Source of the DNA: a virus
Virus record (IMG/VR): IMGVR_UViG_3300037095_000059
Direction: 5' to 3' (one strand)
Length of the DNA: 64,000 nt
Part shown: in pieces, positions 39,439 to 63,842 of the stretch
Layout of the letters: each line of letters begins with the position of its first letter
How positions within the stretch are numbered: the stretch's first letter is position 1
Program-made: the position numbers and the translations under genes
Notes under the pieces: generated by a model
Databases searched by the model: none
What the model was told of the DNA's origin: nothing
What the model saw: the letters and a program-made list of their open reading frames with translations, nothing else

Positions 39439-40074
39439 TTATGTTATTGTCTCCGCGTGGGAACCCGGAGCCTTCAGGGGTTTGAAGATAGCCTCGGCGT
39501 CGAGCTTGGACCCGTTGAAGAAAATTGCAACCGCTCCGCCAGGCTCCACTAGAAGGGCGGTATGCTTCCCTTTTAGTAGCGTTCCTATTTCATGGATGAT
39601 TGACGAGTGCGCAACAATTAACGGGGGAACCCCGCACTTAGAAAACAACTCTACTGCTTCTTGCAGGCACGGGCCAATTCTTTGCTTGAAATCGTTCAGA
39701 GATTCTCCGCCCGGAATAGGGGTATCGGGGTCATCCAAGTATGTTTGAAGGTTGGCTTCGGACTCGGGAGTGCGCTTCTGACCCGAAAATTCTCCTACGT
39801 CGAGGGCCTGCAAAGCCGCAGATGTGTGTACTTGGGCGTGCTCGACTTCGGCTATGATGTCGGCTGTCTGAGTTGCTCTTTGTTTATCGGAGCAAAAGAT
39901 GTGGGAGATTTCTATTGGCGCAAAAAGCTCGGCCAGTTCCCGCGCCTCTTTTACGCCCACCGAATCGAGGGGAGGGTTTGCTTGCCCTCGGAACGAATTT
40001 GAGGCGTTCAAGGCTGTTCTGCCATGTCTGGCAACGAAGCAGACCGCAGTTCCTTTAGGGATTTTCAGTGGCAT
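39439..40074 (-). CDS. histidine phosphatase (phosphoglycerate-mutase-like) family protein
   Basis: Catalytic RHGRTALN motif near the N-terminus. ...SDKQRATQTA... and IVAHSSIIH. Confidence 0.7.
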   Translation of the reverse strand: MPLKIPKGTAVCFVARHGRTALNASNSFRGQANPPLDSVGVKEARELAELFAPIEISHIFCSDKQRATQTADIIAEVEHAQVHTSAALQALDVGEFSGQKRTPESEANLQTYLDDPDTPIPGGESLNDFKQRIGPCLQEAVELFSKCGVPPLIVAHSSIIHEIGTLLKGKHTALLVEPGGAVAIFFNGSKLDAEAIFKPLKAPGSHAETIT

Positions 40075-40365
40075 TCGGTTCTCCGAATAAGTTTTTGGTG
40101 GTAAACCCGGCCACCATCGGCCCGGGGCCCGGCTCGGGCGCAGGATAATCAAACTGAAGTTCTCCCATTTCGGCTTCTAGTTCCCGGACAAACTCTCTCA
40201 GGTCTTCGTGTTCGGCGTAGGGGGATTTTCTTGCGAGAAGCAGTTCGACCGCGAACTTCCGGTAGTCGTGGGGGGCACTGTCGTTACGGGCCACATCCCG
40301 GAGGATCGAATCAGTAAGATGTTGCAGGTGGGAGTAGTGGTCGTCGAGCGGGTCTGCTAGGATCA
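40055..40365 (-). CDS. hypothetical protein
   Basis: ATG 40365 (MILADPLDD...). The longer ORF-track version lacks support. Confidence 0.4.
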
Positions 40366-40593
40366 TAGGTTTCCTTGGTCTTGGGTAACGGACGAGAAAT
40401 AATGTAAAAAGTGCGGGCCGATGAACTCTCGGTTTTGGACCGACGTTGCCCGGTTCGGCTTCTGAGCGGACAAGCAGGGAGATCGTCCGTTGCTTAACCA
40501 ACTCGTCGTCCTTACCTGCCGGAACAATCTTGCCTCCGCTCTAGGGCTAGTAGAGAAGCGGTTTGACCCCTGCTGAACAAAGGCCCGCTGGAA

Positions 40594-40608
40594 GTCCATT
40601 AACTGGAC
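40594..40608. repeat. 15-bp motif copy, R: gtccattaactggac
   Basis: In the 336-nt intergenic region, next to the GC hairpin. Confidence 0.9.
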
Positions 40609-40623
40609 TAAACTTGAAGGAGC

Positions 40624-40655
40624 GGGGGTCGGAGAAAGGAGAGAAGCCGACCCCC
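40624..40655 (-). terminator. strong GC hairpin in the 336-nt intergenic region (terminator candidate)
   Basis: GGGGGTCGG...CCGACCCCC 9-bp stem downstream of the KTSC gene. The trailing tract is only weakly U-rich. Confidence 0.4.
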
Positions 40656-40701
40656 GGGACCGCCGCGAAAAGGAGGAGTATGCGCGACGGTCGATCTTGA
40701 T

Positions 40702-40923
40702 TTAACTTACTCTAGTAATTTCGTGCCCACCCTTTACAAAGACCTGGTGGAAGAATTTTCCGTGGCTGTCCGCTTCTCCAAACGCTATGGCCTTGTCTTG
40801 ATCGACATTCTGGACAGCGAAGGTTCCGTCGTTGAGCTTGACGGTCAAGCGTTGGGCTCTCGGGTCGTACCGGGCCTCATGTACGTTCGTGCTCGGCTTC
40901 AAGCGCATGGGGATGTCGGCCAT
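40702..40923 (-). CDS. KTSC-domain protein
   Basis: STNVHEARYDPRAQRLTVKLNDGTFAVQNVDQDKAIAFGEADSHGKFF follows the KTSC pattern (Y-d..L.v.f..G..y.y..v....f..a.S.G.yf). Confidence 0.55.
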   Translation of the reverse strand: MADIPMRLKPSTNVHEARYDPRAQRLTVKLNDGTFAVQNVDQDKAIAFGEADSHGKFFHQVFVKGGHEITRVS

Positions 40924-41048
40924 TACTTCTCTGCCTTCTTGTCCACTTTTCGGGCAACGAGTCGTCCATCAGGAAGTCGTAAAGCAATACCCACGTGTTT
41001 GGGAAGGGGCCGGAAATCGGGAAGAAATAGAACGTAGTGCTCGTCCAT
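40923..41048 (-). CDS. small hypothetical protein (41 aa)
   Basis: ATGGAC start at a TAATGGAC junction. Weak call. Confidence 0.25.
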   Translation of the reverse strand: MDEHYVLFLPDFRPLPKHVGIALRLPDGRLVARKVDKKAEK

Positions 41049-41140
41049 TAGTTGGGCTCCTTTATGTTGGCCCCAAAGGCCAGGTAGGTCAGAAACCCGA
41101 AGCAAGCCGCCAACCCGAGTATGGTTAGGAAGAGGAGCAT
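41048..41140 (-). CDS. small membrane protein (30 aa)
   Basis: MLLFLTILGLAACFGFLTYLAFG. Weak call. Confidence 0.25.
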   Translation of the reverse strand: MLLFLTILGLAACFGFLTYLAFGANIKEPN

Positions 41141-41225
41141 TACTTTTTCTTCGGCTTCTTCTTGGTCTTCGGTCTGGGTTTGGTTCCGTAGTAGACAGCG
41201 GTCGTGCTGGGAAGTGCGGCGGACG

Positions 41226-41393
41226 TTACTGCTGAGGCGGGGCTGGCGGGCATGTGGGCTCCAAAAGTTTTTCTGCTTCTTCGAGATATTCTTCGCACTG
41301 AGAACAAGTACAACCGCAATCTTCGTCGAGCCAAAGGTGGACAAGGAACCGAAATCTCTCGCAGGCTGACTTGTATTTTTCTAGGTCGGTCAT
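41226..41393 (-). CDS. small Cys-rich protein (55 aa)
   Basis: ATG 41393 overlaps the GIY-YIG stop (ATGA). DEDCGCTCSQCEE. Confidence 0.35.
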   Translation of the reverse strand: MTDLEKYKSACERFRFLVHLWLDEDCGCTCSQCEEYLEEAEKLLEPTCPPAPPQQ

Positions 41394-42196
41394 GGGGTCT
41401 CCACGTTCTTGACTCGAATTTCTTGTTCGGGGCCGAAGCCTACGCGGTTTGATAGCTGGTAGCCCAAAGCGACCGGGGGTTGCTGGAAGGAATCGAGAGG
41501 GAAAGTTGCTCTTCGGCGATCCCAAGCTCTCTCCATACTGGCTTTAATCTTAGCCTTGGTCTCTTCCGTCTGTTTTGTTCCCAGTTTGTGGTTTCCGGTG
41601 TGGTTCTTGGCGATGTTCGCTCGTCCTTCGGGAGTATGATGCTTTCCCGTATTAGCGGCGGACATGCGGGCCGCGTACTCGGGGTCTTTCCATCTTTCTT
41701 TGCATTTGTCCCCGATTAACTTCTTAATTTCATCCGTGTGGGGTTGACCCAGGTCGTGGCGACCAAACATCGGGTTGCGCTCCCCGACTAAAAGACCTTT
41801 ACGGGATTCTGAAGCTCGCTTCTTGTTCTCGGGGTTCTGCCACCACTCTTTGCTCTTCTTTGAAATCTTAACTTTGTTCTCTGGGAGGTGTCTACCAGCC
41901 CGACCACCCAACATTCTGTTATATCCAACAGAGGGGTCGGTGGCATTAAAATGAGCGATGTAGAAGGTTTCGAGTTCGTTGCCCTCTTCTCGACTGGGCG
42001 CCTCGTCTATTTTCTCAATAACGAAGGAGTCTTTTCCGTGGTCTCGAATTGCTTGGTGAAAATCTTGTGGGGCCTTCTTAACGAGGGCGTCGTACAAATG
42101 ACGACTCCAACGCCTCCGCAGAATCTGTACCGTCTGCCCGACGTAGATAATACCGTTAGTCGAGTCTGTGACTTTGTAAATGCTTACTGTTTCCAT
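41390..42196 (-). CDS. free-standing GIY-YIG homing endonuclease with NUMOD3-like repeats
   Basis: SIYKVTD..GIIYVGQT...RRWSRH...FYIAHFN GIY-YIG core. Repeated G(K/R)H.PE..(K/A).I.K motifs. Own promoter-like element. Confidence 0.8.
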   Translation of the reverse strand: METVSIYKVTDSTNGIIYVGQTVQILRRRWSRHLYDALVKKAPQDFHQAIRDHGKDSFVIEKIDEAPSREEGNELETFYIAHFNATDPSVGYNRMLGGRAGRHLPENKVKISKKSKEWWQNPENKKRASESRKGLLVGERNPMFGRHDLGQPHTDEIKKLIGDKCKERWKDPEYAARMSAANTGKHHTPEGRANIAKNHTGNHKLGTKQTEETKAKIKASMERAWDRRRATFPLDSFQQPPVALGYQLSNRVGFGPEQEIRVKNVETP

Positions 42197-42273
42197 TTTG
42201 TCCTCATCTTGCCATGAGGGTTTGGGGCCGAGGGCAAGCTCGACCCCTTACCGTCTGATTCGAATCTACTTGT

Positions 42274-42301
42274 ATTATACCACACTTTCATGCTTCTGCA
42301 A
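42274..42301 (-). promoter_or_regulatory. sigma70-like promoter candidate for the GIY-YIG gene
   Basis: Minus-sense TTGCAG-16 nt-TATAAT with an extended -10 TG (GTGTGGTATAAT). Confidence 0.4.
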
Positions 42302-42359
42302 CAAGTATTTTCGAACTATTTTCGTCCTAGCTGGACGATGTCTGCGCCTGAATACGCTG

Positions 42360-42581
42360 TCTGTTACCCGTTTAGAATCAACGGACTGACTCATTTCTGG
42401 TCAGTTCATACGGTTTTCTTTCCCGTATGGTCGGACTATTGCATGTCCTTTCGGACCCACTTCGCTTAGTCTCTCAGCCTGCTTTCGCTTGGCCCTCCTT
42501 GGCATTTCAGCGTCGGAGTCAATCAGAAGGGGTTTATCCTGCGCCGTTGTGTTAACGCAGTGTCATTGTAGAACCCGGCGG
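42360..42581 (-). ncRNA. group-I-intron-like ribozyme core A (ORF-less); boundaries approximate
   Basis: Homologous to core B. Elements: CUGCG..CGCAG hairpin, GCUGAAAUGC, GAGAGACUAAGCGA (P7/J7-3-like), GUCC-GAAA-GGAC P8, CAUACGG..CCGUAUG P9, terminal GUAACAGAC. Confidence 0.55.
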
Positions 42582-42836
42582 CTCTGTTACCTCGTCCAGG
42601 TAATGGACGCGGGCAAGTCGTTTCTGTTCCGCTTGCCTCATACGGTTCGTTTCCCGTATGCCCAGACTGTTGCATACCCTTTCGGGTCTTCTTCGCTCAG
42701 TCGTTCACGGTCTCTTTCGAGTTCCGCCTCGTTGGCATTTCAGCGTTCGAGTCAATCAGAAGAAGTTTTACCTGCGCCGATGTTTTAACGCAGTGTGTTG
42801 GTGTAGCGAACGTTGTAGCTCACCCACGGAGACTAC
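42582..42836 (-). ncRNA. group-I-intron-like ribozyme core B (ORF-less); boundaries approximate
   Basis: Starts right at the capsid exon-3 stop. Elements: CUUCUUCUG/CGAAGAAG P3, CUC-GAAA-GAG, ACCC-GAAA-GGGU P8, CAUACGG..CCGUAUG P9, motif hairpin 42594, terminal GUAACAGAG. Confidence 0.55.
42594..42608. repeat. 15-bp motif copy, F: gtccaggtaatggac
   Basis: Hairpin near the 3' end of group-I-like core B. Confidence 0.9.
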
Positions 42837-43021
42837 TTACATCAACTTTGTTGTCGGAGGCTGGGTTTGGTCACCACCGATTTGCCGAGCGGGGTCAGAA
42901 CTGGAACCCTGCTCAGGTGCGCTCTGGATAAACAGCTTGTAGTTCTTGCTGTTATCATTCGGGTTTTTGCCCAGGAAAACGCTGAAGATCGCGTCTTCAC
43001 CGAAAATATAAGTGTTATAAA
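42837..43021 (-). CDS. major capsid protein, exon 3 (to the first in-frame stop)
   Basis: (F)YNTYIFGEDAIFSVFLGKNPNDNSKNYKLFIQSAPEQGSSSDPARQIGG... is in frame with exon 2 once the 225-nt intron is removed. Confidence 0.6.
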
Positions 43022-43246
43022 CTCTCTGTTAACTGCTGTGTTATCAGCAAGATACGTCATTTCTGCGTATCTCTCATACTTCATTTCGTATGAGAACGGA
43101 CTATCGCATCGTCCATTACCTGGACGCCCCATCGTTTAGTCTCTCACGGTCCCTTTCGGGTTCCGCCTTGTTGGCTTCTCAGCTTCCAAGTCGATTAGAC
43201 GGGGTTCTCATTCGAGGGTTTCACCTCGATGACGCCTACATTATTG
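43022..43246 (-). mobile_element. group I intron 2 in the capsid gene (225 nt, ORF-less)
   Basis: P1 ACGU|C pairs with GGCGU (U.G at the splice site). P2 CAUCGAGG/CCUCGAAUG. P3 CCCCGUC/GAUGGGG. GCU-GAGA-AGC, CCC-GAAA-GGG, GAGAGACUAAA. P8 is motif copy 43111. P9 CUCAUAC/GUAUGAG. Ends in G. Confidence 0.7.
43111..43125. repeat. 15-bp motif copy, R: gtccattacctggac
   Basis: Forms the P8 hairpin of capsid intron 2. Confidence 0.9.
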
Positions 43247-43825
43247 ACGTGTTGCCACTTATAGTCACGGTCGGAGCAGTTGTGGTTTGTTTGAACGTTA
43301 CGCCAGCGAACGAGATAACATCCTCGTTCTTCGGCAGTTCAAACAGCATGGAACGCATGGAGTCGTCGCGCTTGATGATGTCGGACAATCCGTTGAAGGA
43401 CGTGTCGTTCAGGATGTCGCGGACCACTGACGGGTGAATGATTCCGCCAAATTTGTTGTCCACGAGCGGACGTGCGTTCACGGCTACCAGGGACTGAGCG
43501 GCGGAACGAACGTTGTTGGCCGTCAGGTAGGAACCGTTTGCGAGTTGAATGTTGACCAGGTTGTCAATCGCAACAGCCGAGTCAGCGGTAAGCTGGACAA
43601 GGGTGTTGAGGGTGAGGGCCAAGCGGTAGTTCAACTCATTTGCGAGATTCTGGAGTAGACCGGGGTCGTCGATTGCGACATCAAGTGCGAGGTCGCTAGA
43701 ATTTATAAAATCGGCGTATTGCCCAATTGTGGCCAAAATCTTGTTGCTGGATTCAGAGATCGGACTTCCGACAGTGCCTTCTGCGGACTGGTTCAGGTTA
43801 GCGGAAAGCAGTGCGTAGGTGTAGA
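43247..43825 (-). CDS. major capsid protein, exon 2
   Basis: (F)YTYALLSANLNQSAEGTVGSP...ATIGQYADFINSSDLALD...GGIIHPSVVRDIL... is an HK97-fold capsid-like pattern. Open upstream of the ORF-track start. Confidence 0.7.
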
Positions 43826-43835
43826 CTTTATGTGT

Positions 43836-44723
43836 TTAGGCCGTCAGCATCTCTGCTGGGGCGCTCTCGTCGTCGCCGACGAGAACAGGCTGTGTCTTCG
43901 GATTATTGAGAAAACGAATTGCATCGCACAACTTCTTACGAAGCTCCCTATTTGGAGTTCTTGGAAGACGGACAAGCTCTAGAGCTATCTTGGCTTGCGG
44001 CCTCTTTGTTCTCAGGTAGGGTAGCACTTGGAGTAGAAAACTTTTGCGGTTCTCTTTTCCGGTGAGTTCCCAAGTGTAGAACTCTCTGGTGTTTCCTTTG
44101 GCTTCTTGCGTGTGAAACCACCCGCCGTACAACCGCAGAAACAACTGGATAAGAGGGGCATAATTGTTGCCCATTCTAATTCGTAGCATCGGTTTACCGT
44201 CAGGAGTAAAAGCTGCTGATATGCAACCTTCGCCGTCCATGATTCCGGCCACGTATGCGTGCGTTAGTTTGTCTTCAACAAACCCGTCTAGCGTGTCAGT
44301 CGTTACGCATTCCCTGTTTTTCATCCCCCGGATTTTGTCCATCAACTCTTTGCGTTTCGATGGGTTCTGCTGATCGCCGAGGTCGTAGAACTCCTGAAGT
44401 ACCAGAGCCTCTTCCTTTTTGATTCGCAGATACGGAAGGATATAAGAGAGAAATTGTGGGGCGGCATTCCTGCCGTTGATGTTCCACTGATACCAAACTT
44501 GGCCGCGTGCTGGCGTGTGCTTGGTGTAGAAGCCCCCAAAAGTTTCGACTAGCCCCTTTACCAGGGACAGTTCAACGCTGCTCATAACGATTCTAGGTTG
44601 GTAAGGAGTTGCTTTTCCGCCTTCTTTTACAGTCGGCTTGTATATCGAAAAGCACCCTTCCGCGTCCATCAAACCAGCGGCGTAGGCTTTTGTTCTTTCT
44701 CTCATAGGGTCTTTGCTCGGCAT
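43836..44723 (-). CDS. double-motif LAGLIDADG homing endonuclease (intron-encoded)
   Basis: Two LAGLIDADG motifs, YAAGLMDAEGCFSI and YVAGIMDGEGCISA. GGAG RBS before ATG 44723. Confidence 0.85.
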   Translation of the reverse strand: MPSKDPMRERTKAYAAGLMDAEGCFSIYKPTVKEGGKATPYQPRIVMSSVELSLVKGLVETFGGFYTKHTPARGQVWYQWNINGRNAAPQFLSYILPYLRIKKEEALVLQEFYDLGDQQNPSKRKELMDKIRGMKNRECVTTDTLDGFVEDKLTHAYVAGIMDGEGCISAAFTPDGKPMLRIRMGNNYAPLIQLFLRLYGGWFHTQEAKGNTREFYTWELTGKENRKSFLLQVLPYLRTKRPQAKIALELVRLPRTPNRELRKKLCDAIRFLNNPKTQPVLVGDDESAPAEMLTA

Positions 44724-44737
44724 TGTCTGCTCCAATT

Positions 44738-44769
44738 ATTATACTACCACACCGATAGTATTTTGTCAA
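44738..44769 (-). promoter_or_regulatory. sigma70-like promoter candidate inside intron 1, upstream of the LAGLIDADG ORF
   Basis: Minus-sense TTGACA-17 nt-TAGTAT (or 20 nt to TATAAT). Shares GTGTGGTA..TATAAT with the GIY-YIG promoter candidate. Confidence 0.4.
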
Positions 44770-44815
44770 GCAGATTTTCACCGATTTAGCTAGATTTTAA
44801 TTCAGCACCATAGAT

Positions 44816-44978
44816 ACTGAATCTGGTTGCCTTGGCGCAACGGCAGCGGACGCTGCTTGGTCATGCTAAGGAATGGAGTGTTTGCCTTCAGGTTAGGAAT
44901 TGCTTCCCGCTCGTAGTGAATTGCTACCAAGTTGGGGAGAGCGCCCGAGGTGACTATACTGGCTGGTGAATAACTCAT
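44816..44978 (-). CDS. major capsid protein, exon 1
   Basis: AAAGGAG RBS, then MSYSPASIVTSGALPNLVAIHYEREAIPNLKANTPFLSMTKQRPLPLRQGNQIQ. The unspliced frame stops 4 codons later. Confidence 0.7.
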
Positions 44979-44996
44979 TTGAGTTACTCCTTTGTG

Positions 44997-46136
44997 TTAG
45001 ATAGAGCGCCGACTTTTTGCAATGTGCATCTGAGTTGCCCGCCACAATGCTTGGTGGGCTTCGTCTGACATATTGTTTAAGTCCTCGGCTGAGGGCGCTG
45101 TGAGGGTCTCGGGCGGCGCGACGGGTGTTACGTCGTTTCTCCCAATTCCCAAAGCCGCTCTCGGGCGCGTCACCACTTGAACAATCCGTTCGTTGGGGCG
45201 CGGCGCAGGCAGTGCCGGTCCGTTTGACGGAACCGCTACCGGCGGAGTGGGTTCGGCCTGTGGTTCAGGCGGAATTTGTCTTGACCTCGGGGCCGTGAGT
45301 AGCAATCCATCGCTGCTCAGGTCCGCAAAAGCCTCTTCAATGTTTGAAACTGTCCATTGTCCGGCGGAGTGAAGATCGAACATATTCGCGTCGGGTTTGC
45401 CGAGCTTGAACTTGCTCAGCCAGCGGACAATGAGGTTGAAATTCTTTCCCTCTCTGTCCGGGTAATAGTCGGGGTTCCTTCGAACAAACTCCTCGCCCAC
45501 GGCCCCGGTTTCGAGGTTGGCGTCCGCGTTCGCTCCCTTTTGCGCCAAGGAGAACACTTCGTCCATTGTTACTCCCCGTGTCTTTTGCATCAGAGCATCG
45601 AAGGCAGCAGAGGGATCGGATTCCCACATGGTCTTGATCTCGAAGACTTCGTCCGCCGTCAGCTTCCGGGTAGTGGTCGCCATCTTTGGCGTGGCGGGCT
45701 GCGCGGGGGCGGGCGTTCCGAACTTCAGCTTCCCACTCAACTCCCGGATTTTCTTCGTGGCGTTCAGCTTGCCGGTCAGAACGTTAATCAGAAGCTCGTC
45801 TTTGTTCTTGCCCCAGAAGACCTCCGGTTTAGCGCCAGTGCCTGGGTCGAGCACAGCCTTCCACTGCCCTTTTTCCTTCGTGCGGGTAACGTAGGCCCCG
45901 TCTTCCAACTGAAAGACTTCCGGGCCTTCGGGCTCGGGCTCCACTACGGGAACAACGATCTCTGGTTCCGGCTGAGGATAGTTTGTAACTATCTCCGGAG
46001 TGATTAAGGGGTGCTCGTCCAAAAGGTCGGGGTTGATCTCGTCCAAGTGGGTTGCGCTAAAATCAACGTTGTTGAAAGGGTCGGGGGTGCCGTCTGAATT
46101 GAGGGCCCAGGGATCAATTACTGGTTGGTTTGCCAT
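44997..46136 (-). CDS. scaffolding protein candidate (379 aa)
   Basis: Lies between the portal-proximal genes and the capsid gene. Acidic and Pro-rich with predicted helical stretches. Called on position only. Confidence 0.4.
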   Translation of the reverse strand: MANQPVIDPWALNSDGTPDPFNNVDFSATHLDEINPDLLDEHPLITPEIVTNYPQPEPEIVVPVVEPEPEGPEVFQLEDGAYVTRTKEKGQWKAVLDPGTGAKPEVFWGKNKDELLINVLTGKLNATKKIRELSGKLKFGTPAPAQPATPKMATTTRKLTADEVFEIKTMWESDPSAAFDALMQKTRGVTMDEVFSLAQKGANADANLETGAVGEEFVRRNPDYYPDREGKNFNLIVRWLSKFKLGKPDANMFDLHSAGQWTVSNIEEAFADLSSDGLLLTAPRSRQIPPEPQAEPTPPVAVPSNGPALPAPRPNERIVQVVTRPRAALGIGRNDVTPVAPPETLTAPSAEDLNNMSDEAHQALWRATQMHIAKSRRSI

Positions 46137-58566: not shown

Positions 58567-58648
58567 TGGAGCGGAAGACGGGATTCGAACCCGCATGTCA
58601 AAGACAGTTGCTTGGAAGGCAACGGCTCTACCACTGAGCGACTTCCGC
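58567..58648 (-). tRNA. tRNA-Gly(UCC) with an extra variable-region hairpin
   Basis: Anticodon arm GUUGC-CUUCCAA-GCAAC. T-loop UUCGAAU. CCA encoded. 12-nt variable region UGUC-UUU-GACA. Confidence 0.75.
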
Positions 58649-58656
58649 ATGAAACT

Positions 58657-58730
58657 TGGTAGGCGACTGTGGAATCTAACCACAATGACACCCCTATCGA
58701 GGGTGCGTCCTAACATTGGACGAGTCGCCC
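58657..58730 (-). tRNA. tRNA-Ile(GAU)
   Basis: CACCC-UCGAUAG-GGGUG (C at position 33). CCA encoded. Confidence 0.7.
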
Positions 58731-58735
58731 GTAAA

Positions 58736-58811
58736 TGGTGTGGTCGGCAGGACTCGAACCTGCGGTGAACTGGGTGTAGGCCAGCCGATTTAGCCGCTAA
58801 TCTACGACCAC
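58736..58811 (-). tRNA. tRNA-Val(UAC)
   Basis: GCUGG-CCUACAC-CCAGU (C33). T-loop UUCGAGU. CCA encoded. Confidence 0.7.
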
Positions 58812-58816
58812 AGAAA

Positions 58817-58891
58817 TGGGGCGCGTAGCCGGAATCGAGCCGACATTCTGACCTTCGGAGGGTCGAGTTCTGTCCGTTGAACTATACGCGC
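58817..58891 (-). tRNA. tRNA-Arg(CCG)
   Basis: Anticodon loop CUCCGAA. Acceptor GCGCGUA/UACGCGC. CCA encoded. Confidence 0.75.
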
Positions 58892-58895
58892 AAAC

Positions 58896-58971
58896 TGGAA
58901 CCGACCACGGGACTTCAACCCGCATCAACTTCGTTAGGACCGAAGGGCTCTGTGCATTGAGCTAAGTCGGC
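58896..58971 (-). tRNA. tRNA-Arg(CCU)
   Basis: CUUCG-GUCCUAA-CGAAG. CCA encoded. Confidence 0.75.
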
Positions 58972-58975
58972 GAAA

Positions 58976-59050
58976 TGGAAACCCCATCCGGAGTCAAACC
59001 GGAATCTAACGAATAGAAGCCGTTGCTCTCTTCCCTTGAGCTATGGGGTC
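58976..59050 (-). tRNA. tRNA-Arg(UCU)
   Basis: AACGG-CUUCUAU-UCGUU. CCA encoded. Confidence 0.7.
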
Positions 59051-59056
59051 AAAATT

Positions 59057-59132
59057 TGGTGCCTCGCCAGGGAATTGAACCCTGTCCAATCGGCTTAAAA
59101 GGCCGTTATGCCAGCCATCACACTCACGAGGC
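59057..59132 (-). tRNA. tRNA-Lys(UUU)
   Basis: CGGC-CUUUUAA-GCCG. T-loop UUCAAUU. CCA encoded. Confidence 0.7.
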
Positions 59133-59180
59133 AACGTTTGTCGTCCTCGGATTTTCGACTTGTCATAACGTCCTCCAAAA

Positions 59181-59257
59181 TGGTGGGTCGCCAGGAACTC
59201 GAATCCTGCTCTGTCGGGTAAGAACCGACTGCTTCAAACCATCAAAGCTTGCAACCC
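59181..59257 (-). tRNA. tRNA-Lys(CUU)
   Basis: GUCGG-UUCUUAC-CCGAC. T-loop UUCGAGU. CCA encoded. Confidence 0.8.
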
Positions 59258-59258
59258 G

Positions 59259-59352
59259 TGGTAGGCGACCAGGGGGTCGAACCCTGCCGTTGCGCTATTC
59301 GAGGCGCTCTCCCGGGGATATAAAGCCCAGCCGCACACCGATGCTATCGCCC
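59259..59352 (-). tRNA. class II (long variable arm) tRNA-like gene with an enlarged anticodon loop; identity unresolved
   Basis: Good acceptor, T arm (CAGGG-UUCGACC-CCCUG) and variable arm (GCGC..GCGC). The anticodon stem closes an 8-9 nt loop CUUUAUAU(C). Confidence 0.5.
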
Positions 59353-59718
59353 AAAACTTTTGTCCATTAACCGGACAATATCCTTCTTCAACTGTGCAAC
59401 CTTCGCGGGCGGCATGTACAACTCGCCCTTCTTGACCAAGGCTATTCCTCCCTTTTTCACCGTGCCGCCTTTGTGAAAAGTAGCGGGAGACGCTTTGCTA
59501 AAATTGGGAGTCGGCAGGCTCGGGGTGTAGCTGGGGCCCGGGGCTTGCCTTGTATTCGCTTGTAGATCGTCTGTTGTTGCTGCGCGAGCAGCGGCGTTCT
59601 TGGCTTCAGCGGCCTGCATAGCAGAGCCCACGGCCCCGACGGCGGACCCTACTTTCTGCTTAGTGGTCTGCGGTGTTTTGGAGTCCGGTTTGTCGGTGCC
59701 TACCATTGCGTTTGCCAC
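59344..59718 (-). CDS. hypothetical protein embedded in the tRNA array
   Basis: 124-aa ORF with an A/T/K-rich N-terminus. C-terminus VRLMDKSFGR is read through motif copy 59362. The stop lies inside the adjacent tRNA-like gene. Confidence 0.4.
   Translation of the reverse strand: MANAMVGTDKPDSKTPQTTKQKVGSAVGAVGSAMQAAEAKNAAARAATTDDLQANTRQAPGPSYTPSLPTPNFSKASPATFHKGGTVKKGGIALVKKGELYMPPAKVAQLKKDIVRLMDKSFGR
59362..59376. repeat. 15-bp motif copy, R: gtccattaaccggac
   Basis: Near the C-terminus of 59344..59718 (VRLMD), 10 nt from a tRNA-like gene. Confidence 0.9.
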
Positions 59719-59738
59719 GTATTCTCCTTGTGTTGTCT

Positions 59739-59812
59739 TGGTGCCGCACGAGCTAATCGAAAGCTAACTCCGAAGTCCTTATGAGAGACTCGTCCAACCT
59801 TTGGTGCGCGGC
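59739..59812 (-). tRNA. tRNA-Met(CAU)-type (Met, fMet or Ile2 not distinguished); reduced D arm
   Basis: AGUCU-CUCAUAA-GGACU. D arm CCAA-AGG-UUGG. CCA encoded. Confidence 0.6.
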
Positions 59813-59858
59813 TTACGCAAACTGCGTACATTTGTACTCAAAACGAGTACATTCAAAA

Positions 59859-59933
59859 TGGCAGGAGATGTAGGATTTTAACCTACAAGTTCCGTTTTGG
59901 AGACGGACAGTTTGACATTGAGCTTAATCTCCC
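59859..59933 (-). tRNA. tRNA-Trp(CCA)
   Basis: UCCGU-CUCCAAA-ACGGA. CCA encoded. Confidence 0.75.
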
Positions 59934-59940
59934 GTAAAAC

Positions 59941-60015
59941 TGGTGCCCGGTAGAGGAGTCTAACCTCTGTCTCGAAGTTCGTAGCTTCGTGTCTTATACG
60001 TTATACGAACCGGAC
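59941..60015 (-). tRNA. tRNA-Arg(ACG)
   Basis: CGAAG-CUACGAA-CUUCG. CCA encoded. Confidence 0.75.
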
Positions 60016-60086
60016 TCAGCGCGAATCGAATCGAACGATTTCCACGAGCATCCGAGGCTCGGAGGCGACCACTACCCCACGCACTG
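60016..60086 (-). tRNA. tRNA-Pro(CGG)
   Basis: C1-G72 acceptor pair. CGAGC-CUCGGAU-GCUCG. T-loop UUCGAUU. No CCA encoded. Confidence 0.7.
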
Positions 60087-60093
60087 CTTAATA

Positions 60094-60169
60094 TGGTCAG
60101 CGGGCCGGGCTCCGCTTCCGGGACACGTGCTTCCGGAGCACGGAGGTTACTAGGCTACACTACCCACTG
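60094..60169 (-). tRNA. tRNA-Pro(CGG)-like, atypical T-loop
   Basis: C1-G72. CGUGC-UCCGGAA-GCACG (C33). T-loop AGCGGAG. CCA encoded. Confidence 0.5.
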
Positions 60170-60175
60170 ATAAAT

Positions 60176-60249
60176 TGGTCTGGGAGGGGAATTATGCTAT
60201 CCCGACACAAGCTTCCAGAGCTTGGATGTTTCTTCTACACTACTCCCAG
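60176..60249 (-). tRNA. tRNA-Pro(UGG), atypical T-loop
   Basis: C1-G72. CAAGC-UCUGGAA-GCUUG (C33). T-loop AGCAUAA. CCA encoded. Confidence 0.55.
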
Positions 60250-60250
60250 G

Positions 60251-60327
60251 TGGTCAGGGCGGTGGGAAATCGAACCCACTCCACAAGTCTCCCAGACTTG
60301 GATGCACAACCTCTACACTACACCCTG
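60251..60327 (-). tRNA. tRNA-Pro(GGG)
   Basis: C1-G72. CAAGU-CUGGGAG-ACUUG. CCA encoded. Confidence 0.7.
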
Positions 60328-60335
60328 ATAAAACA

Positions 60336-60413
60336 TGGTGCGGATTCAGCGAATCGAACGCTGTTCTTTCGCTCTTCAGGCGAACGCTAAATCACCAGAC
60401 TAGCTCAATCCGC
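60336..60413 (-). tRNA. tRNA-Phe(GAA)
   Basis: UUCGC-CUGAAGA-GCGAA. T arm CAGCG-UUCGAUU-CGCUG. CCA encoded. Confidence 0.8.
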
Positions 60414-60505
60414 AAAACTGTGCGTGGTCTCTCCCCGCCGTCACTCCACTCAGCCCCAGGCGATCAACGGGAGACTGCTGCCGCAGGTGTCGCGGTTCTC
60501 AGCTT

Positions 60506-60569
60506 TGGTGGACCAGGAGGGGCTTGATTCCTCGCGCAGACGCTTGCATCCATCTGAAAGTACTGGCCC
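60506..60569 (-). ncRNA. 64-nt tRNA-like element lacking a D arm (CCA-ended)
   Basis: Acceptor GGGCCAG/CUGGUCC, T-arm-like GAGGA-AUCAAGC-CCCUC, central CAGAUG-GAUGCAAG-CGUCUG hairpin, ACCA end. Confidence 0.35.
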
Positions 60570-60581
60570 ATTGTTAAACCA

Positions 60582-60806
60582 CTACCAAATATCCCATGCC
60601 ACAGTCTTTTTCACAGCAGGCATTTCTTTCTCCTGCGCGACTGCTGCCGTTGCAGCACGTCGATACTTGCGATTCCTGATCTTTGCCCAGGATTTACGCC
60701 CCGGCCATGCTCCACCATAAGCGCCAGGATAACCACAGAGTTTGCGCCACGCCTCACGAGTCGCTTCCTGTATCTTCCAAGGCATCGTGTTAATCGTTCG
60801 GGACAC
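60582..60806 (-). CDS. small basic W/R-rich protein embedded in the tRNA array
   Basis: 74-aa ORF. GTG start 7 nt after GAGGAG. Confidence 0.4.
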   Translation of the reverse strand: MSRTINTMPWKIQEATREAWRKLCGYPGAYGGAWPGRKSWAKIRNRKYRRAATAAVAQEKEMPAVKKTVAWDIW

Positions 60807-60823
60807 AACTTACTCCTCAAACT

Positions 60824-60879
60824 TGGTGGAGCCTGTTGTCAGCCACCGGATCGCGCCCGGCCCCATGATGGTTTACATT
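60824..60879 (-). ncRNA. CCA-ended hairpin or minihelix (tRNA remnant?)
   Basis: GGGGCC...GGCUCC-ACCA acceptor-like pairing enclosing CCGG-GCGCGAU-CCGG. No full cloverleaf. Confidence 0.3.
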
Positions 60880-60954
60880 TGGTGGAAAAGAGGAGAATCG
60901 AACTCCTACCTACTGGGTGCAGACCAGTCGTGCTCCCATTACCACTACTTCCCC
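60880..60954 (-). tRNA. tRNA-Ala(UGC)
   Basis: G3.U70 wobble present. ACUGG-UCUGCAC-CCAGU (C33). T-loop UUCGAUU. CCA encoded. Confidence 0.75.
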
Positions 60955-60991
60955 ACATTTCAAACTTACGCCGAGGTCCTACCTTAGATGA

Positions 60992-61129
60992 TGGTGCGGA
61001 ACTCACCGCATATTCCAGGGAGAGTCGAACTCCCGTTTCTCGGCGCTTCTCGCCAGACGCTTTACCCAAAGCTACTAGGTGGTTTTACCCGGGCCTAGTC
61101 CGGACTCGAACCGGATTCTTCTGGCTGCT
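60992..61129 (-). ncRNA. composite of tRNA-like fragments (two T arms, one D arm, CCA-ended hairpin); no intact cloverleaf found
   Basis: UCCGG-UUCGAGU-CCGGA and GGGAG-UUCGACU-CUCCC T arms, GCUU-UGGGUA-AAGC D arm, 3' GCGG-UGAGUU-CCGC-ACCA. Confidence 0.35.
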
Positions 61130-61205
61130 TGGAGGGAAGGGGACGAGTTGAACGTCCTAGAGAGTGGATTCACAGACCACCGCCGCACCGTTTGGCTTCC
61201 GACCC
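61130..61205 (-). tRNA. tRNA-His(GUG)-like (two acceptor-stem mismatches)
   Basis: GUGGU-CUGUGAA-UCCAC. T arm GGACG-UUCAACU-CGUCC. CCA encoded. Confidence 0.55.
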
Positions 61206-61313
61206 AAAATTTTCCGAGCTTTAGGCTGATCTGCTGGCCAGCTAAAGGGCTAGGCCCACGATCAACTTTTCACTGCACCCTATTTCTAGGGGGTACCCGG
61301 TGTAGGACTTGTT

Positions 61314-61328
61314 GTCCATTACCTGGAC
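61314..61328. repeat. 15-bp motif copy, R: gtccattacctggac
   Basis: Spacer in the tRNA array, between the His and Thr blocks. Confidence 0.9.
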
Positions 61329-61384
61329 GAATCTTGAAGCAAGGTTTACTCTGAAACCCGGCAGAAAAGTCAGACCACTTCGTT

Positions 61385-61412
61385 TGGTAGAACCAGGCAG
61401 GTGTCGCCTGTG
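61385..61412 (-). ncRNA. T-arm/acceptor-like minihelix ending in CCA, immediately 3' of tRNA-Thr(UGU)
   Basis: CAGGC-GACACCU-GCCUG followed by GUUCUA-CCA. There is no room for a 5' half. Confidence 0.3.
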
Positions 61413-61487
61413 TGGAGCGCCCGGACAGATTCAAACTGCCTTCTCCCGGGTACAGGCCGGGCGAATCTTCTGGTATTCTTCAGGCGC
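61413..61487 (-). tRNA. tRNA-Thr(UGU)
   Basis: CCCGG-CCUGUAC-CCGGG (C33). D arm GAAU/AUUC. CCA encoded. Confidence 0.75.
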
Positions 61488-61556
61488 AAATCTCAACTAA
61501 AGACATTGTACCACAGCAGTCTTCAGCTTGTCAACAACTATTTCAGAAAAACTTTG

Positions 61557-61630
61557 TGGAGCCGACGAGGGGAGTTCAACCCCTATTTCTGACGTACCAG
61601 GTCAGCGTTGTAGCGTTGAACCACATCGGC
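61557..61630 (-). tRNA. tRNA-Thr(GGU)
   Basis: CUGAC-CUGGUAC-GUCAG. CCA encoded. Confidence 0.8.
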
Positions 61631-61631
61631 T

Positions 61632-61705
61632 TGGAGCCCGGTCGGGGAATTCAACCCCGGTCTTCGCGGTACGAAGGCGAAAGTCTAGCACTGACCTAAC
61701 CAGGC
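61632..61705 (-). tRNA. tRNA-Thr(CGU)
   Basis: UCGCC-UUCGUAC-CGCGA (one stem mismatch). T arm CGGGG-UUGAAUU-CCCCG. CCA encoded. Confidence 0.7.
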
Positions 61706-61708
61706 GTT

Positions 61709-61723
61709 GTCCATTATCTGGAC
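61709..61723. repeat. 15-bp motif copy, R: gtccattatctggac
   Basis: 3 nt upstream (5') of tRNA-Thr(CGU). Confidence 0.9.
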
Positions 61724-61907
61724 GAAACATTGCCGCTTGAGGGCCGGATGCTTCCCCGGCTTTTACGAACCGCGTGGTAGGGCGGCCAACCTCGGAGTGC
61801 GCATCTCCTGCGGCAAACTAATCGCGCCGTTCCGACCTGCTTAGACCTTCCATAGAAGGCGAGGTTTGCAACCCTCGACAGGCACCTTTCTGGATACTGC
61901 GCGAACT
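61724..61907 (-). ncRNA. unassigned structured spacer S1 (~185 nt)
   Basis: Multiple hairpins: GAGG-GUUGCAAA-CCUC, CCUUC-UAUG-GAAGG, GCCGG-GGAAGCAU-CCGGC. Internal ...CCGCCCUACCA. No cloverleaf found. Confidence 0.35.
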
Positions 61908-61982
61908 TGGAGCGAAGGACCAGACTCGAACTGGCGTCTACGGACTGGCAATCCGAGGTACTAGCCGCTGTACGACCTTCGC
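61908..61982 (-). tRNA. tRNA-Gly(GCC)
   Basis: CGGA-UUGCCAG-UCCG. T arm GCCAG-UUCGAGU-CUGGU. CCA encoded. Confidence 0.8.
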
Positions 61983-61987
61983 AAAAA

Positions 61988-62062
61988 TGGCAGGGGGTAC
62001 TGGAATTGAACCAGTCTTCAGGGCTTCAAAGACCCTTACCTAAACCAATCGGTCAACCCCCT
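61988..62062 (-). tRNA. tRNA-Gln(UUG)
   Basis: AGGGU-CUUUGAA-GCCCU. CCA encoded. Confidence 0.75.
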
Positions 62063-62067
62063 AAACT

Positions 62068-62141
62068 TGGCTCGGGCAGATGGAATCCAACCACCGCCAT
62101 TCGGGTCAGAGCCGAATGTCCTAGCACTAAACGATGCCCGA
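62068..62141 (-). tRNA. tRNA-Gln(CUG)
   Basis: U1-A72. UUCGG-CUCUGAC-CCGAA. CCA encoded. Confidence 0.75.
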
Positions 62142-62149
62142 TTAAATTT

Positions 62150-62225
62150 TGGCTCACCCGGAGGGCCACGATCCCCCAACCTCTCGGTTAACAGCCGAGC
62201 GTTCTGCCAATTGAACTACAGGTGA
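62150..62225 (-). tRNA. tRNA-Asn(GUU)
   Basis: CUCGG-CUGUUAA-CCGAG. D arm GUUC/GAAC. CCA encoded. Confidence 0.8.
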
Positions 62226-62235
62226 ACATTAAACT

Positions 62236-62312
62236 TGGTAGGGTTGATGGAGCTTGCATCCATTAGGGCCTGCGTGAAGGGCAGGGTGCTCGACTACTTT
62301 GCATTCAACCCC
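62236..62312 (-). tRNA. tRNA-Glu(UUC)
   Basis: CCUGC-CCUUCAC-GCAGG (C33). T arm AUGGA-UGCAAGC-UCCAU. CCA encoded. Confidence 0.7.
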
Positions 62313-62404
62313 AAAACTAAAACGGATGGTGGCCCTACACTTCTTACGCCACTGTCGATGAGGCTTAACTTCCCCTCGTTGCCGAGTGTTGCATCCGTTT
62401 AACT
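62313..62404 (-). ncRNA. unassigned ~90-nt structured element S4 closed by an 8-bp helix
   Basis: AACGGAUG...CAUCCGUU closing stem. Internal CUCG-GCAA-CGAG hairpin and an internal GGGCCACCA. Confidence 0.35.
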
Positions 62405-62478
62405 TGGCGGCCTACCAGGGAGTCAAACCCTGATCGTGAGGATGAGGACCTCACATCCTGTCGTTAGAAGAGTAGGCC
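62405..62478 (-). tRNA. tRNA-Glu(CUC)
   Basis: UGAGG-UCCUCAU-CCUCA (C33). T arm CAGGG-UUUGACU-CCCUG. CCA encoded. Confidence 0.75.
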
Positions 62479-62752
62479 AAAACATGGCCGACTTACATCC
62501 CGAAGGAAAGCGGCAAAACTTTGCCGGTCTTTCCCGGCGGTCAGGAGTAGCACTAATCGAGCCTTCTTAACCACGCTCGGGTGGAACCATCAAGGTGAGG
62601 GGTTGCCCACGGTTTCCAAACCGTCTCGTTACTGGACTTCGCTGTGCTCACCACAGCCGCCCTATCCGAGTAGCGCGGAAGAAGGGTGCTCAATTAGCTC
62701 CTTGAGACGGAGGGGAGCCTGTACAAGCCTACCGGCGGGTACAACATCAAAA
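62479..62752 (-). ncRNA. unassigned structured spacer S2 (~270 nt)
   Basis: Dense hairpins: GCUGUG-GUGAG-CACAGC, ACGGUU-UGGA-AACCGU, CCGG-GAAAGA-CCGG, UCC-UUCG-GGA. Long-range CCCGCC/GGGCGG pairing. No ORF and no cloverleaf. Confidence 0.4.
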
Positions 62753-62831
62753 TGGCGCGAGCGAGGGGACTCGAACCCCCGAATAAATCCTCATGGACAG
62801 TGAGGTGCAGTTGCCGCTGTGCTACGCCCGC
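62753..62831 (-). tRNA. tRNA-Asp(GUC)
   Basis: CCUCA-CUGUCCA-UGAGG. T arm GGGGG-UUCGAGU-CCCCU. CCA encoded. Confidence 0.75.
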
Positions 62832-62992
62832 GTAAGATTGTACTCCAGATTATAAGAGATGAATTTTATCACATCTCCCGCTGCCGGGGTATTAAGTCCA
62901 TTGTCTGGATGAAGTTCGCAGTATTTGTCCCACGCAGTCTTGTGCGGACATGGTCTGCTGTAATAATTAGAAATACATTCTTCCAGATTCAT
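62822..62992 (-). CDS. small Cys-containing protein (56 aa) embedded in the tRNA array
   Basis: GAGGAAG RBS. MNLEECISNYYSRPCPHKTAWDKYCELHPDNGL... The degenerate motif 62896 is read as HPDNGL. The stop lies inside tRNA-Asp. Confidence 0.35.
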   Translation of the reverse strand: MNLEECISNYYSRPCPHKTAWDKYCELHPDNGLNTPAAGDVIKFISYNLEYNLTRA

Positions 62993-63004
62993 GCTTCCTC
63001 AAAT

Positions 63005-63081
63005 TGGTTCAGGGAGGGCGATTCGAACGCCGCTATTCATTCGAGCTTATGAGGCTGAATGCCACACCAACGGGCCCCTGT
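63005..63081 (-). tRNA. tRNA-Met(CAU)-type, atypical (A1.A72 mismatch, long anticodon stem)
   Basis: Anticodon loop CUCAUAA. T-loop UUCGAAU. CCA encoded. Confidence 0.55.
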
Positions 63082-63102
63082 ATAAACATTATACCACAAA
63101 AC

Positions 63103-63193
63103 TGGTGCAAGCAGAGGGATTCGAACCCCCAATGTCATCAAAGATAATCCAGATTTACAGTCTGGCGCACCCAACCGTATGTGCCTTACTTGC
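63103..63193 (-). tRNA. tRNA-Tyr(GUA), class II
   Basis: CCAGA-CUGUAAA-UCUGG. D arm GCAC/GUGC. Long variable arm. CCA encoded. Confidence 0.8.
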
Positions 63194-63194
63194 G

Positions 63195-63279
63195 TGGAGG
63201 AGAGCAGCCGAATCGAACGGCCATCCTTGCGGAGCCCCGGTTTTCAAGACCGGCTGTATCACCATCAACAGTGCTCTCC
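63195..63279 (-). tRNA. tRNA-Ser(UGA)
   Basis: CCGGU-CUUGAAA-ACCGG. Long variable arm. CCA encoded. Confidence 0.8.
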
Positions 63280-63612: not shown

Positions 63613-63617
63613 TAAAA

Positions 63618-63703
63618 TGGCGGAAAGTACAGAACTCGAATCTGAATCCTTGCGGATCGCACCGCTTTCCAAGCGGGCCCAGGCCCTGCCCGGTCTACTT
63701 TCC
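63618..63703 (-). tRNA. tRNA-Ser(GGA)
   Basis: CCGC-UUGGAAA-GCGG. Variable arm GAUCC-GCAA-GGAUU. CCA encoded. Confidence 0.75.
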
Positions 63704-63837: not shown

Positions 63838-63842
63838 AAACT

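Follow-up and report, generated by a model that had tools for sequence, protein, structure and literature searches.

A soil phage major capsid gene, likely in six exons, with four group I introns and a 46-nt insert that lacks a catalytic core

The stretch of viral DNA considered here, hereafter the window, comprises the 64,000 nucleotides (nt) of IMG/VR virus record IMGVR_UViG_3300037095_000059 and belongs to a soil phage. On its minus strand, an open reading frame (ORF) with a capsid-like N-terminus starts at 44978 after an AGGAG, reads MSYSPASIV...RQGNQIQ and then ends in YLWC and a stop codon (44978..44802). The original prediction, drawn from the sequence alone, proposed that the gene is split by two group I introns, one of which carries a LAGLIDADG endonuclease. 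Its coordinates have proven exact, every sequence statement in it was confirmed on the minus strand, and its interpretation is supported for both inserts. Nevertheless, it undercounts the interruptions, as its range ended at 43022 and the gene runs to 42327 through three more. The region 44978..42327 is very likely a single major capsid gene composed of six exons, four group I introns and a 46-nt insert without a catalytic core (Table 1).

For comparison, 160 loci related to this one were retrieved from IMG/VR and from JGI metagenomes (referred to below by numbers such as L003). The joined exons (163, 579, 149, 39, 24 and 30 nt) amount to 984 nt encoding 327 amino acids (aa) and a stop codon, and the product is colinear with its homologues (n = 268, top identity 91%), which are mostly uninterrupted at 326-330 aa. 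Excision of introns 1 and 2 yields GNQIQ-F-YTYALLSANL and TISGNT-F-YNTYIFGEDA, respectively, with no alignment gap at GNQIQ-F-YTY or ISGNT-F-YNTY against uninterrupted homologues. Furthermore, natural empty sites exist for both: exons 1 and 2 are contiguous in L004 (CAGATTCAGTTCTATACC), which does have intron 2, and exons 2 and 3 are contiguous in L003 (GGCAACACATTCTACAAC), which does have intron 1. Gapless colinearity and empty sites together argue that junctions 1 and 2 are not due to chance. Relatives without introns 3 and 4 exist as well. The homologues end in ...DPARQIGGWVSYNVRYTNTLRPGSTMTLRRLQSETSSS, a tail that in the window is split over four exons (the end of exon 3 and exons 4-6), and according to the homologue alignment the 46-nt insert has to be excised to give QIGG/WVSYNV. 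Each of the five inserts is preceded by T and has G as its last base.

With regard to the identity of the protein, many homologues carry the JGI name 'N4-gp56 family major capsid protein'. The spliced capsid scores 41.7 bits (E = 8.5e-11) against the model of that name, TIGR04387, and does not reach the cut-off of 60, which suggests a relationship below the equivalog level. The closest isolate by capsid is Tunturiibacter phage Tunturi_3 (39% identity), two relatives are located in acidobacterial metagenome-assembled genomes, and a megablast search for close DNA relatives among GenBank phages gave no match.

We infer that the inserts are spliced out of the transcript. Some results of the searches count against this: the exact spliced protein is not in a collection of 15 billion proteins, where its cluster mates are at most 91% identical, no uninterrupted contig more than 96% identical to an intron-bearing locus was found, and neither the protein collection nor the contigs gave transcript or protein evidence of splicing. 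A gene that is truly split or decaying, be it into separate polypeptides, as a dead gene or through truncation at the 46-nt insert, would agree with the truncated ORFs that gene callers yield for such loci (P0072, P0106, P0015) and with the silence of Rfam on the window. However, no start codon equipped with a ribosome-binding site is present at the 5' ends of exons 2-6, and all six exons, including those of 24 and 39 nt, fit the family consensus with mainly synonymous differences. Moreover, a search confined to 40001..46000 of the 64-kb window found no second capsid copy, and the same architecture recurs in independent samples, which makes a split or dying gene scarcely credible.

The four full-size inserts are very likely group I introns. 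In each of introns 1-4, the exon-final U is paired with a G of the guide in helix P1 and the intron ends in G. The P1 that had been proposed for intron 1 was found as described, with AUUCAGU pairing with GCUGAAU, nine nucleotides into the insert, through six Watson-Crick pairs and a terminal U.G, and intron 2 is indeed a 225-nt insert without an ORF that follows ...ACGU. A T...G boundary that restores the protein was present at 83 of the 98 cleanly resolved junctions in relatives, with 1.8 equally good placements on average; most of the other junctions (15) are compound gaps. Two related families can be told apart among the inserts, T in the N-terminal half of the gene and S, with subtypes S1 and S2, in the C-terminal half. 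An nhmmer profile of family S, made from 31 introns of relatives with the window and L003 rows excluded, matched introns 2, 3 and 4 at full length (E = 5e-35, 2.7e-29 and 1.5e-25) and nothing else in the 64 kb. A profile from the S2 rows only still matched intron 2 (E = 1.1e-7).

The Rfam covariance model RF00028 appears to contradict this assignment. No match was obtained in the window at the gathering threshold (50 bits), at E <= 10 on 6 kb, or on 1 kb, and the original prediction had suggested this very scan and named its failure as one ground for refutation, which the silence, read literally, amounts to. Eight homologous inserts in relatives do exceed the threshold, with a range of 50.9-61 bits. 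Six of them are S2 introns, at 50.9-61 bits; another belongs to family T and is inserted at site 21 (55.7 bits); and the last, also of family T and ORF-less, occupies in L052 the insertion site of intron 1, site 55 (53.0 bits). The S1 introns of relatives, the type of introns 2-4, reach only 21-26 bits. RF00028 thus misses intron 1 because the ORF cuts its core into three blocks, and introns 2-4 because S1 is a diverged subfamily; for these reasons its silence is not taken as evidence against the introns. The relatives-only profiles, in turn, tie the window introns to homologues that do reach the threshold.

To examine the fold of family S, a P1-P9.2 structure with the P3/P7 pseudoknot was drawn by hand and tested on 35 introns. 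In this alignment 79.8% of cells are paired, against 55.8% after shuffling (a level attained in 0/500 shuffles) and 36-40% when the partners are slid. In P7, 100% of cells are paired, with 4/6 pairs changed on both sides (GACUA/UAGUC, GACUG/CAGUC, GAGCA/UGCUC, GGCCA/UGGUC), and the G-C pair beside its bulged A is invariant (columns 144/186, 35/35 sequences). The P3 pseudoknot is 89% paired, with 7/7 pairs changed on both sides, while P2, P9 and P9.1 are about 90% paired. P4-P6 is weaker (44-66%) because S1 and S2 align poorly there, and the U.G column of P1 reads UG in 27/33 sequences. Among the window introns, the P2 of intron 2 has compensatory changes in L004, and the P7 of intron 3 (GACUG/CAGUC) is compensatory relative to that of intron 2. 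Intron 4, which is also found in L003, presents a less favourable case: its P3 (42532-42544 and about 42456-42475, minus strand) has a C.U mismatch in place of the A-U of L003, by which it may be slightly weakened. From this architecture, guanosine-dependent self-splicing of introns 1-4 would be predicted, in which the end of the 5' exon pairs with the internal guide, U.G being the last pair, guanosine attacks after the U, and the freed exon attacks after the terminal G of the intron.

In intron 1, the core appears in three pieces. A profile from seven ORF-less family T introns gave matches at 44822-44708 (P1 to the P6 5' strand, E = 1.8e-12), at 44319-44282 (weak, E = 0.039, the block reading GCGUAACGACUGACACGCUAGAC) and at 43905-43831 (J8/7, P7 3' strand, P9 and P9.1, E = 2.4e-10). 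The GCUAGA of the middle block and the P3 5' strand, UCUAGC, are perfectly complementary. Three helices covary among the site-55 introns: P8 (CGGGUU/AAUCCG in the window, UGGGGA/UCUCCA in L066, UGCUCUU/AAGAGCA in L059), P6 (CCC/GGG in the window, CUGGA/UCCAG in L059) and P3 (UCUAGC/GCUAGA in the window, CCCGAC/GCCGGG in L059). Covariation of the P1-P9.2 fold with its P3/P7 pseudoknot and the relatives-only profiles thus both bear out the group I assignment originally made for introns 1 and 2. The two-motif LAGLIDADG ORF with its own ribosome-binding site is likewise present, a GGAG preceding its ATG and the motifs AAGLMDAEGCF and VAGIMDGEGCI lying at about residues 18-28 and 160-170 of one chain. 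Pfam LAGLIDADG_1 (PF00961) matches only its first domain (E = 3.5e-8, 34.7 bits, cut-off 23.1). Placed by the three profile blocks and the covarying P3, P6 and P8, the frame starts in P4'/P6 and ends inside P9.1; endonuclease domain 1 falls in loop L6, domain 2 in L8, and the linker between them is encoded by the P6'-J6/7-P7-P3' part of the core. As for the promoter-like TTGACA..TATAAT that had been noted, the TTGACA holds and was scored with a TAGTAT at a spacing of 17; the TATAAT lies 3 nt farther, where the spacer would be 20 nt. Similar promoter-like motifs recur in ORF-bearing introns of relatives.

Interruptions of this kind are widespread among the relatives, with more than 100 inserts at about 20 sites of the capsid gene. 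In L082 (IMG/VR 3300032893_000735; capsid at about 1559-5182), eight of them occupy sites 21, 55, 88, 248, 264, 275, 297 (a counterpart of the 46-nt insert) and 303. The shortest exon measures 24 nt in the window and 16 nt in relatives. Introns 3 and 4 share 75% identity, each being preceded by ACACUGCGU, and intron 2 is 78-80% identical to the introns at R293/Q294 of L063 and L073, all of them after CACGU. Related introns at different sites have in common only the hexamer complementary to the guide, which would be the pattern expected for guide-directed (reverse-splicing-like) transposition, and the same intron lineage at different guide-matching sites offers a natural dataset for such spread. 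As a separate observation, L080 carries at R293/Q294 (4476-4485) a 10-nt frame-breaking insert, ttataatttg, which follows a T, ends in G and has no guide. Its aatttg is the reverse complement of the caaatt just 3' of it, and full introns occupy R293/Q294 in L063, L071 and L073.

The 46-nt insert between exons 3 and 4, termed here the mini-insert, is of a different nature. It contains a P1 hairpin, a guide and a tail only, and in view of its lack of the P3-P9 catalytic core it is not filed as a group I intron proper. Counterparts of 38-59 nt occupy this position in 17 distinct sequences, which come from independent samples and represent about 12 lineages, and this recurrence argues against an assembly artefact. 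The T...G rule holds in 17/17 of these sequences, which are of two types: type A would be spliced after GGUGGU, and type B one base later, so that it splits a Trp codon (T/GG).

Every version contains a contiguous guide, 5'-P10-P1-3'. Its P1 part forms base pairs with the last bases of the 5' exon, the terminal pair being U.G, and its P10 part does so with the 3' exon over the first 4-9 bases, most versions having 5-7. The window guide ACCCA + GCCUCCGA faces a 3' exon starting UGGGU and a 5' exon ending UCGGUGGU. The guide, 3' exon and 5' exon are UUACCC + GGCCACC, GGGUAA and GGUGGUU in L010; UGACCC + GUCCACCG, GGGUCA and CGGUGGAU in L082; GCACU + GUCCAC, GGUGC and GUGGAU in L048, which encodes W-C-S, not W-V-S; AACCC + GGCCUC, GGGUU and GAGGCU in L141; ACCU + GCUCGCCU, GGGU and AGGCGGGU in L155; and CUGACCU + GCCCACC, (A)GGGUCAG and GGUGGGU in L160. 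The P1 part follows synonymous changes in the exon (GGUGGU/GCCUCCGA, GGUGGAU/GUCCACC, GGAGGCU/GGCCUC, GGCGGGU/GCUCGCCU, GGUGGGU/GCCCACC, GGAGGGU/GCCCUCC), and the P10 part follows the starts of the 3' exon (UGGGU/ACCCA, GGGUAA/UUACCC, GGGUCA/UGACCC, GGUGC/GCACU).

In an alignment of 14 versions (A3), 85% of cells are paired, compared with 30-45% when the partners are slid. For P10 the paired fraction is 93.6%, 4/6 pairs have changed on both sides, and the pair beside the splice site occurs as AU, UG, GC and CG. Minimum free energy (MFE) folding recovered the P1 hairpin in 8/10 versions, and per-sequence shuffles of the insert gave p = 0-0.067. The guide motif falls in different reading frames between versions, and the exons downstream are intact in all lineages, with synonymous variation. 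A frame-independent guide, a split Trp codon and intact exons indicate that the mini-insert is an element acting at the RNA level that aligns the exons as a group I guide does, and it is probably removed at that level through its guide.

Two results speak less clearly for a guide-directed removal. Shuffle tests of the guide are modest for the type found in the window (p = 0.02-0.07). In several versions MFE folding also gives a second hairpin, whose stem joins the insert tail to the SY(N) codons of the following exon and whose loop contains the 3' splice site; this helix covaries in some versions and is significant in only a few, so that a third helix of tail and next exon may be considered a possibility.

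The mini-insert also bears traces of its ancestry. Type B inserts and full S1 introns have in common a UCUAA(A)CCUU stretch after the guide, which in the full introns is J1/3 and the start of P3, and a GUAACAUAG-like 3' end. The simplest origin suggested by these shared ends would be internal deletion of a full intron.

The coherence of the guide with both exons as RNA bears directly on a ribosomal explanation, namely that the ribosome skips the mini-insert by translational bypassing of the T4 gene 60 type. The 46 nt are close to the 50-nt gap of gene 60, a stem-loop takes in the Gly codons just before the insert, and a UAA codon directly follows GGA in L067 and L048. Nonetheless, there are no matching take-off and landing codons, as take-off at GGU is set against a CCG, UCG or UUG before UGG in type A, and in type B the split of the invariant Trp codon (T/GG) could not be rebuilt by any hop. 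In addition, the guide changes reading frame between versions, as in L072 with a 4-nt indel upstream, and it covaries with both exons, all of which leaves bypassing with very little probability. A simple frameshift over the 46 nt was also considered and discarded: a TAA closes frame 0, and in the +1 frame a TAG stands two codons before TGG.

Similarly improbable is the skipping of exon 4, in which the 5' splice site of the mini-insert would be joined to the 3' site of intron 3 to give a capsid 13 residues shorter. This join is in frame in the window, but it would shift the frame where type B is combined with a site-303 intron. Moreover, few stretches of the family are as well conserved as WVSYNV(R/K)YTNTLR, the codons of which vary synonymously, and the P10 guide of the insert matches the start of exon 4. 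Removal by proteins has also to be weighed, with an RNA endonuclease and a ligase recognising two hairpins, cutting out the mini-insert and rejoining the exons. Phages are known to encode RNA ligases, and the splice sites lie at hairpin ends or in hairpin loops. On the other hand, the layout corresponds in every respect to a group I guide (contiguous P10/P1, U.G at the 5' splice site, terminal G), the insert ends are homologous to those of full introns, and no such enzyme pair was seen near the gene, although none was specifically looked for. We regard protein-mediated removal as a long shot.

If the mini-insert is removed through its guide, a core has to come from elsewhere, and we infer its source from the neighbourhood. 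A full S1 intron lies 16-39 nt downstream (site 303/304 or 310/311) in 17/17 distinct sequences that bear a mini-insert, compared with 12/63 sequences without one (Fisher p = 5e-10, or 1e-7 counting 12 lineages, figures uncorrected for phylogeny or intron-rich lineages, which tempers them). In L106/L107, residues 4-297 are uninterrupted and the sole downstream intron is the one located 39 nt after the mini-insert. The mini-insert would then be a deletion derivative that retains the P1 hairpin, the contiguous P10+P1 guide and, at the 3' end, a short tail with the terminal G, and would be spliced by the same chemistry with the core of another intron. The likeliest donor would be intron 3, tethered 39 nt downstream, whose ribozyme would service the mini-insert before leaving the transcript. 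Mini-inserts could thus persist in an essential gene since the neighbouring full intron of the same transcript would supply the core. Whether the core of the neighbouring intron performs the removal seems to us evenly poised. The same balance applies to the broader proposal that the 46-nt insert and the counterparts of 38-59 nt known from about 12 lineages represent natural, non-autonomous group I introns, which have lost the ribozyme core and receive one from their neighbour.

Group I ribozymes dock P1 via backbone contacts and the U.G wobble, not via its sequence. Three considerations speak against a borrowed core: a P1 helix without covalent continuity to the core docks weakly, the active site is also contested by the P1 of the neighbouring ribozyme itself, and no group I intron lacking its core is known to us from nature. 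A strand swap, in which the mini-insert would replace the P3 5' strand of the downstream core, was examined and rejected, as only 4 bp are available in type B and none in the window.

The core might instead be provided in trans by any free excised intron RNA. The transcript holds four ribozymes, capsid mRNA is abundant late in infection, and the spacing to the neighbour, between 16 and 39 nt, follows no fixed geometry. In vitro, cores accept an externally supplied guide-substrate duplex (PMC2709566) and excise internal segments (PMC2532722), which agrees with removal in trans. However, trans removal gives no obvious reason for a full intron within 39 nt downstream in 17/17 cases. Furthermore, docking of the P1 duplex in trans is weak by established enzymology, and we consider this route rather unlikely.

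The features of the locus are collected in Table 1. For a spliced transcript, the predicted ligated junctions are CAGATTCAGT/TCTACACC, GGCAACACGT/TTTATAAC, ATCGGTGGT/TGGGTGAGC, ACACTGCGT/CCGGGTTC and ACACTGCGT/CGTATTCAG, and the predicted peptides of the spliced capsid are IQFYTYALLSANLNQSAEGTVGSPISESSNK (tryptic, across junction 1), QIGGWVSYNVR, YTNTLRPGSTMTLR and one containing GNTFYNTY.

Table 1. Exons, inserts and associated features of the capsid locus, in window coordinates
Feature	Coordinates	Strand	Description
Exon 1	44816..44978	-	163 nt, M1 to first base of F55; ORF and ribosome-binding site, homologue colinearity
Intron 1	43826..44815	-	990 nt, group I family T, LAGLIDADG ORF
Intron 1, 5' core block	44708..44822	-	P1 44822-44816/44806-44800; P3 5' strand 44794-44789
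Intron 1, 5' core block, continued		-	P4 44784-44779/44722-44717; P5 44774-44769/44731-44726; P5a 44760-44754/44748-44742; P6 5' strand near 44711
Promoter-like TTGACA-17-TAGTAT with upstream TG	44741..44769	-	In the P5 extension of intron 1; 10/12 matches
LAGLIDADG homing endonuclease ORF	43836..44723	-	295 aa from ATG at 44723
Intron 1, middle core block, inside ORF	44279..44318	-	P6 3' strand, J6/7, P7 5' strand GACUG, P3 3' strand GCUAGA 44292-44287, P8 5' strand
Intron 1, 3' core block	43826..43904	-	P8 3' strand, J8/7, P7 3' strand, P9 43883-43866, P9.1 43858-43845, terminal G 43826
Exon 2	43247..43825	-	579 nt; homologue colinearity, join checked
Intron 2	43022..43246	-	225 nt, group I family S1, ORF-less
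Exon 3	42873..43021	-	149 nt, ending ...QIGG
Mini-intron (mini-insert)	42827..42872	-	46 nt, without catalytic core, ends in G; guide at 42866-42854
Exon 4	42788..42826	-	39 nt, WVSYNVRYTNTLR
Intron 3	42579..42787	-	209 nt, group I family S1; P1 CUGCGU with GCGCAG
Exon 5	42555..42578	-	24-nt micro-exon, PGSTMTLR
Intron 4	42357..42554	-	198 nt, group I family S1; P1 identical to that of intron 3
Exon 6	42327..42356	-	30 nt, RIQAQTSSS and stop
GIY-YIG/NUMOD3 endonuclease gene, free-standing	41390..42196	-	130 nt past the capsid stop codon

The free-standing endonuclease gene that follows the capsid gene matches Pfam GIY-YIG (E = 1.9e-9) and TIGR01453 'group I intron endonuclease' (66.2 bits, cut-off 56), and the same arrangement is found in L003. 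Its product could mobilise the nearby ORF-less introns by collaborative homing. Directly upstream of the capsid gene, a 379-aa ORF (44997-46136, minus strand), without a match in Pfam, has a homologous ORF at the same place in L004 and possibly encodes a scaffold or decoration protein. Farther away, 21 tRNA genes form an array at 58570-63925 on the same strand as the capsid gene, and a weak match to the Rfam DUF3268 RNA at 40054-40162 on the plus strand (27.1 bits, E = 0.027, gathering score 65.3) is probably due to chance.

The arrangement has consequences for annotation, as gene callers break the capsid gene into fragments and public databases already hold truncated capsid proteins. Several public 'major capsid proteins' of 236-302 aa (P0072, P0106, P0015, P0121-P0132) are exons read through into an intron, with ends such as ...GNT-SIM or ...QIGG-EQTQPPTTKLM followed by a stop. 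If the reading proposed for the mini-insert is true, it would be a natural self-splicing intron that has handed catalysis to another RNA. To our knowledge, such a transfer to a shared RNA has been postulated, but not observed, in the transition to introns that depend on a common machinery.

The two introns originally noted are themselves of a known kind. Capsid introns had been described as uncommon, and two in one gene as more so; group I introns in capsid genes were known before, from mycobacteriophage LittleE and lactococcal phage Tuc2009 (PMC3706429), and phage genes reach three. As in these two phages and in T4 td, nrdB and sunY (PMC3706429, PMC3984707), inserts of a self-splicing type interrupt an essential phage gene between an exon-final U and an intron-final G, with an optional endonuclease ORF in a peripheral loop and intron-plus and intron-minus alleles among close relatives. 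What goes beyond the known cases is the number of interruptions, with four introns and a mini-insert in the window and up to eight interruptions in relatives, the spread over about 20 sites and the core-less mini-introns. The LAGLIDADG frame moreover occupies L6 and L8 and runs through the core, whereas the ORF of LittleE is on the opposite strand.

Several related group I introns separated by short exons are also known from other phage genes. Staphylococcus phage Twort orf142 has three in one gene, with exon skipping, and the DNA polymerase and terminase genes of Bastillevirinae have up to three (PMC11878797 and its reference 34). The four introns and mini-insert of the window exceed these examples, the highest found in the literature (three per gene), and the shortest exon has 24 nt (16 nt in relatives); for Twort and the Bastillevirinae a core-less member is not described. 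Outside phages, the capsid gene of Faustovirus, of about 17 kb, is likewise heavily fragmented by introns (PMC6247863), but this is a eukaryotic giant virus and the likeness rests on fragmentation, not on intron type.

The gap of T4 gene 60 resembles the mini-insert in being a frame-breaking, stop-containing stretch of about 50 nt in an essential phage gene from which a full-length product is still made, but the mini-insert lacks matched take-off and landing codons, splits Trp in type B and is conserved at the RNA level. With regard to the introns themselves, S2 and T appear to have motifs (AAUUCGGUGGA...CAAUACCGAGCCAAGC...GUGUAGAGACUAGA) in common with bacterial tRNA group I introns of subgroup IC3 (Azoarcus tRNA-Ile type), a likeness to be used as a lead. 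Both groups are compact, at about 200 nt, and S2 and T are the best RF00028 scorers here. Unlike the Azoarcus type, the introns of the window and its relatives lie in a protein-coding phage gene and have extra P9.1 and P9.2 hairpins, and S1 is too diverged for RF00028. Finally, in engineered bimolecular systems (PMC2709566, PMC2532722) a core processes a P1 (and P10) substrate that is not its own, as proposed for the mini-insert. Those are laboratory constructs, whereas the mini-insert would be a natural and heritable counterpart, conserved in about 12 lineages.

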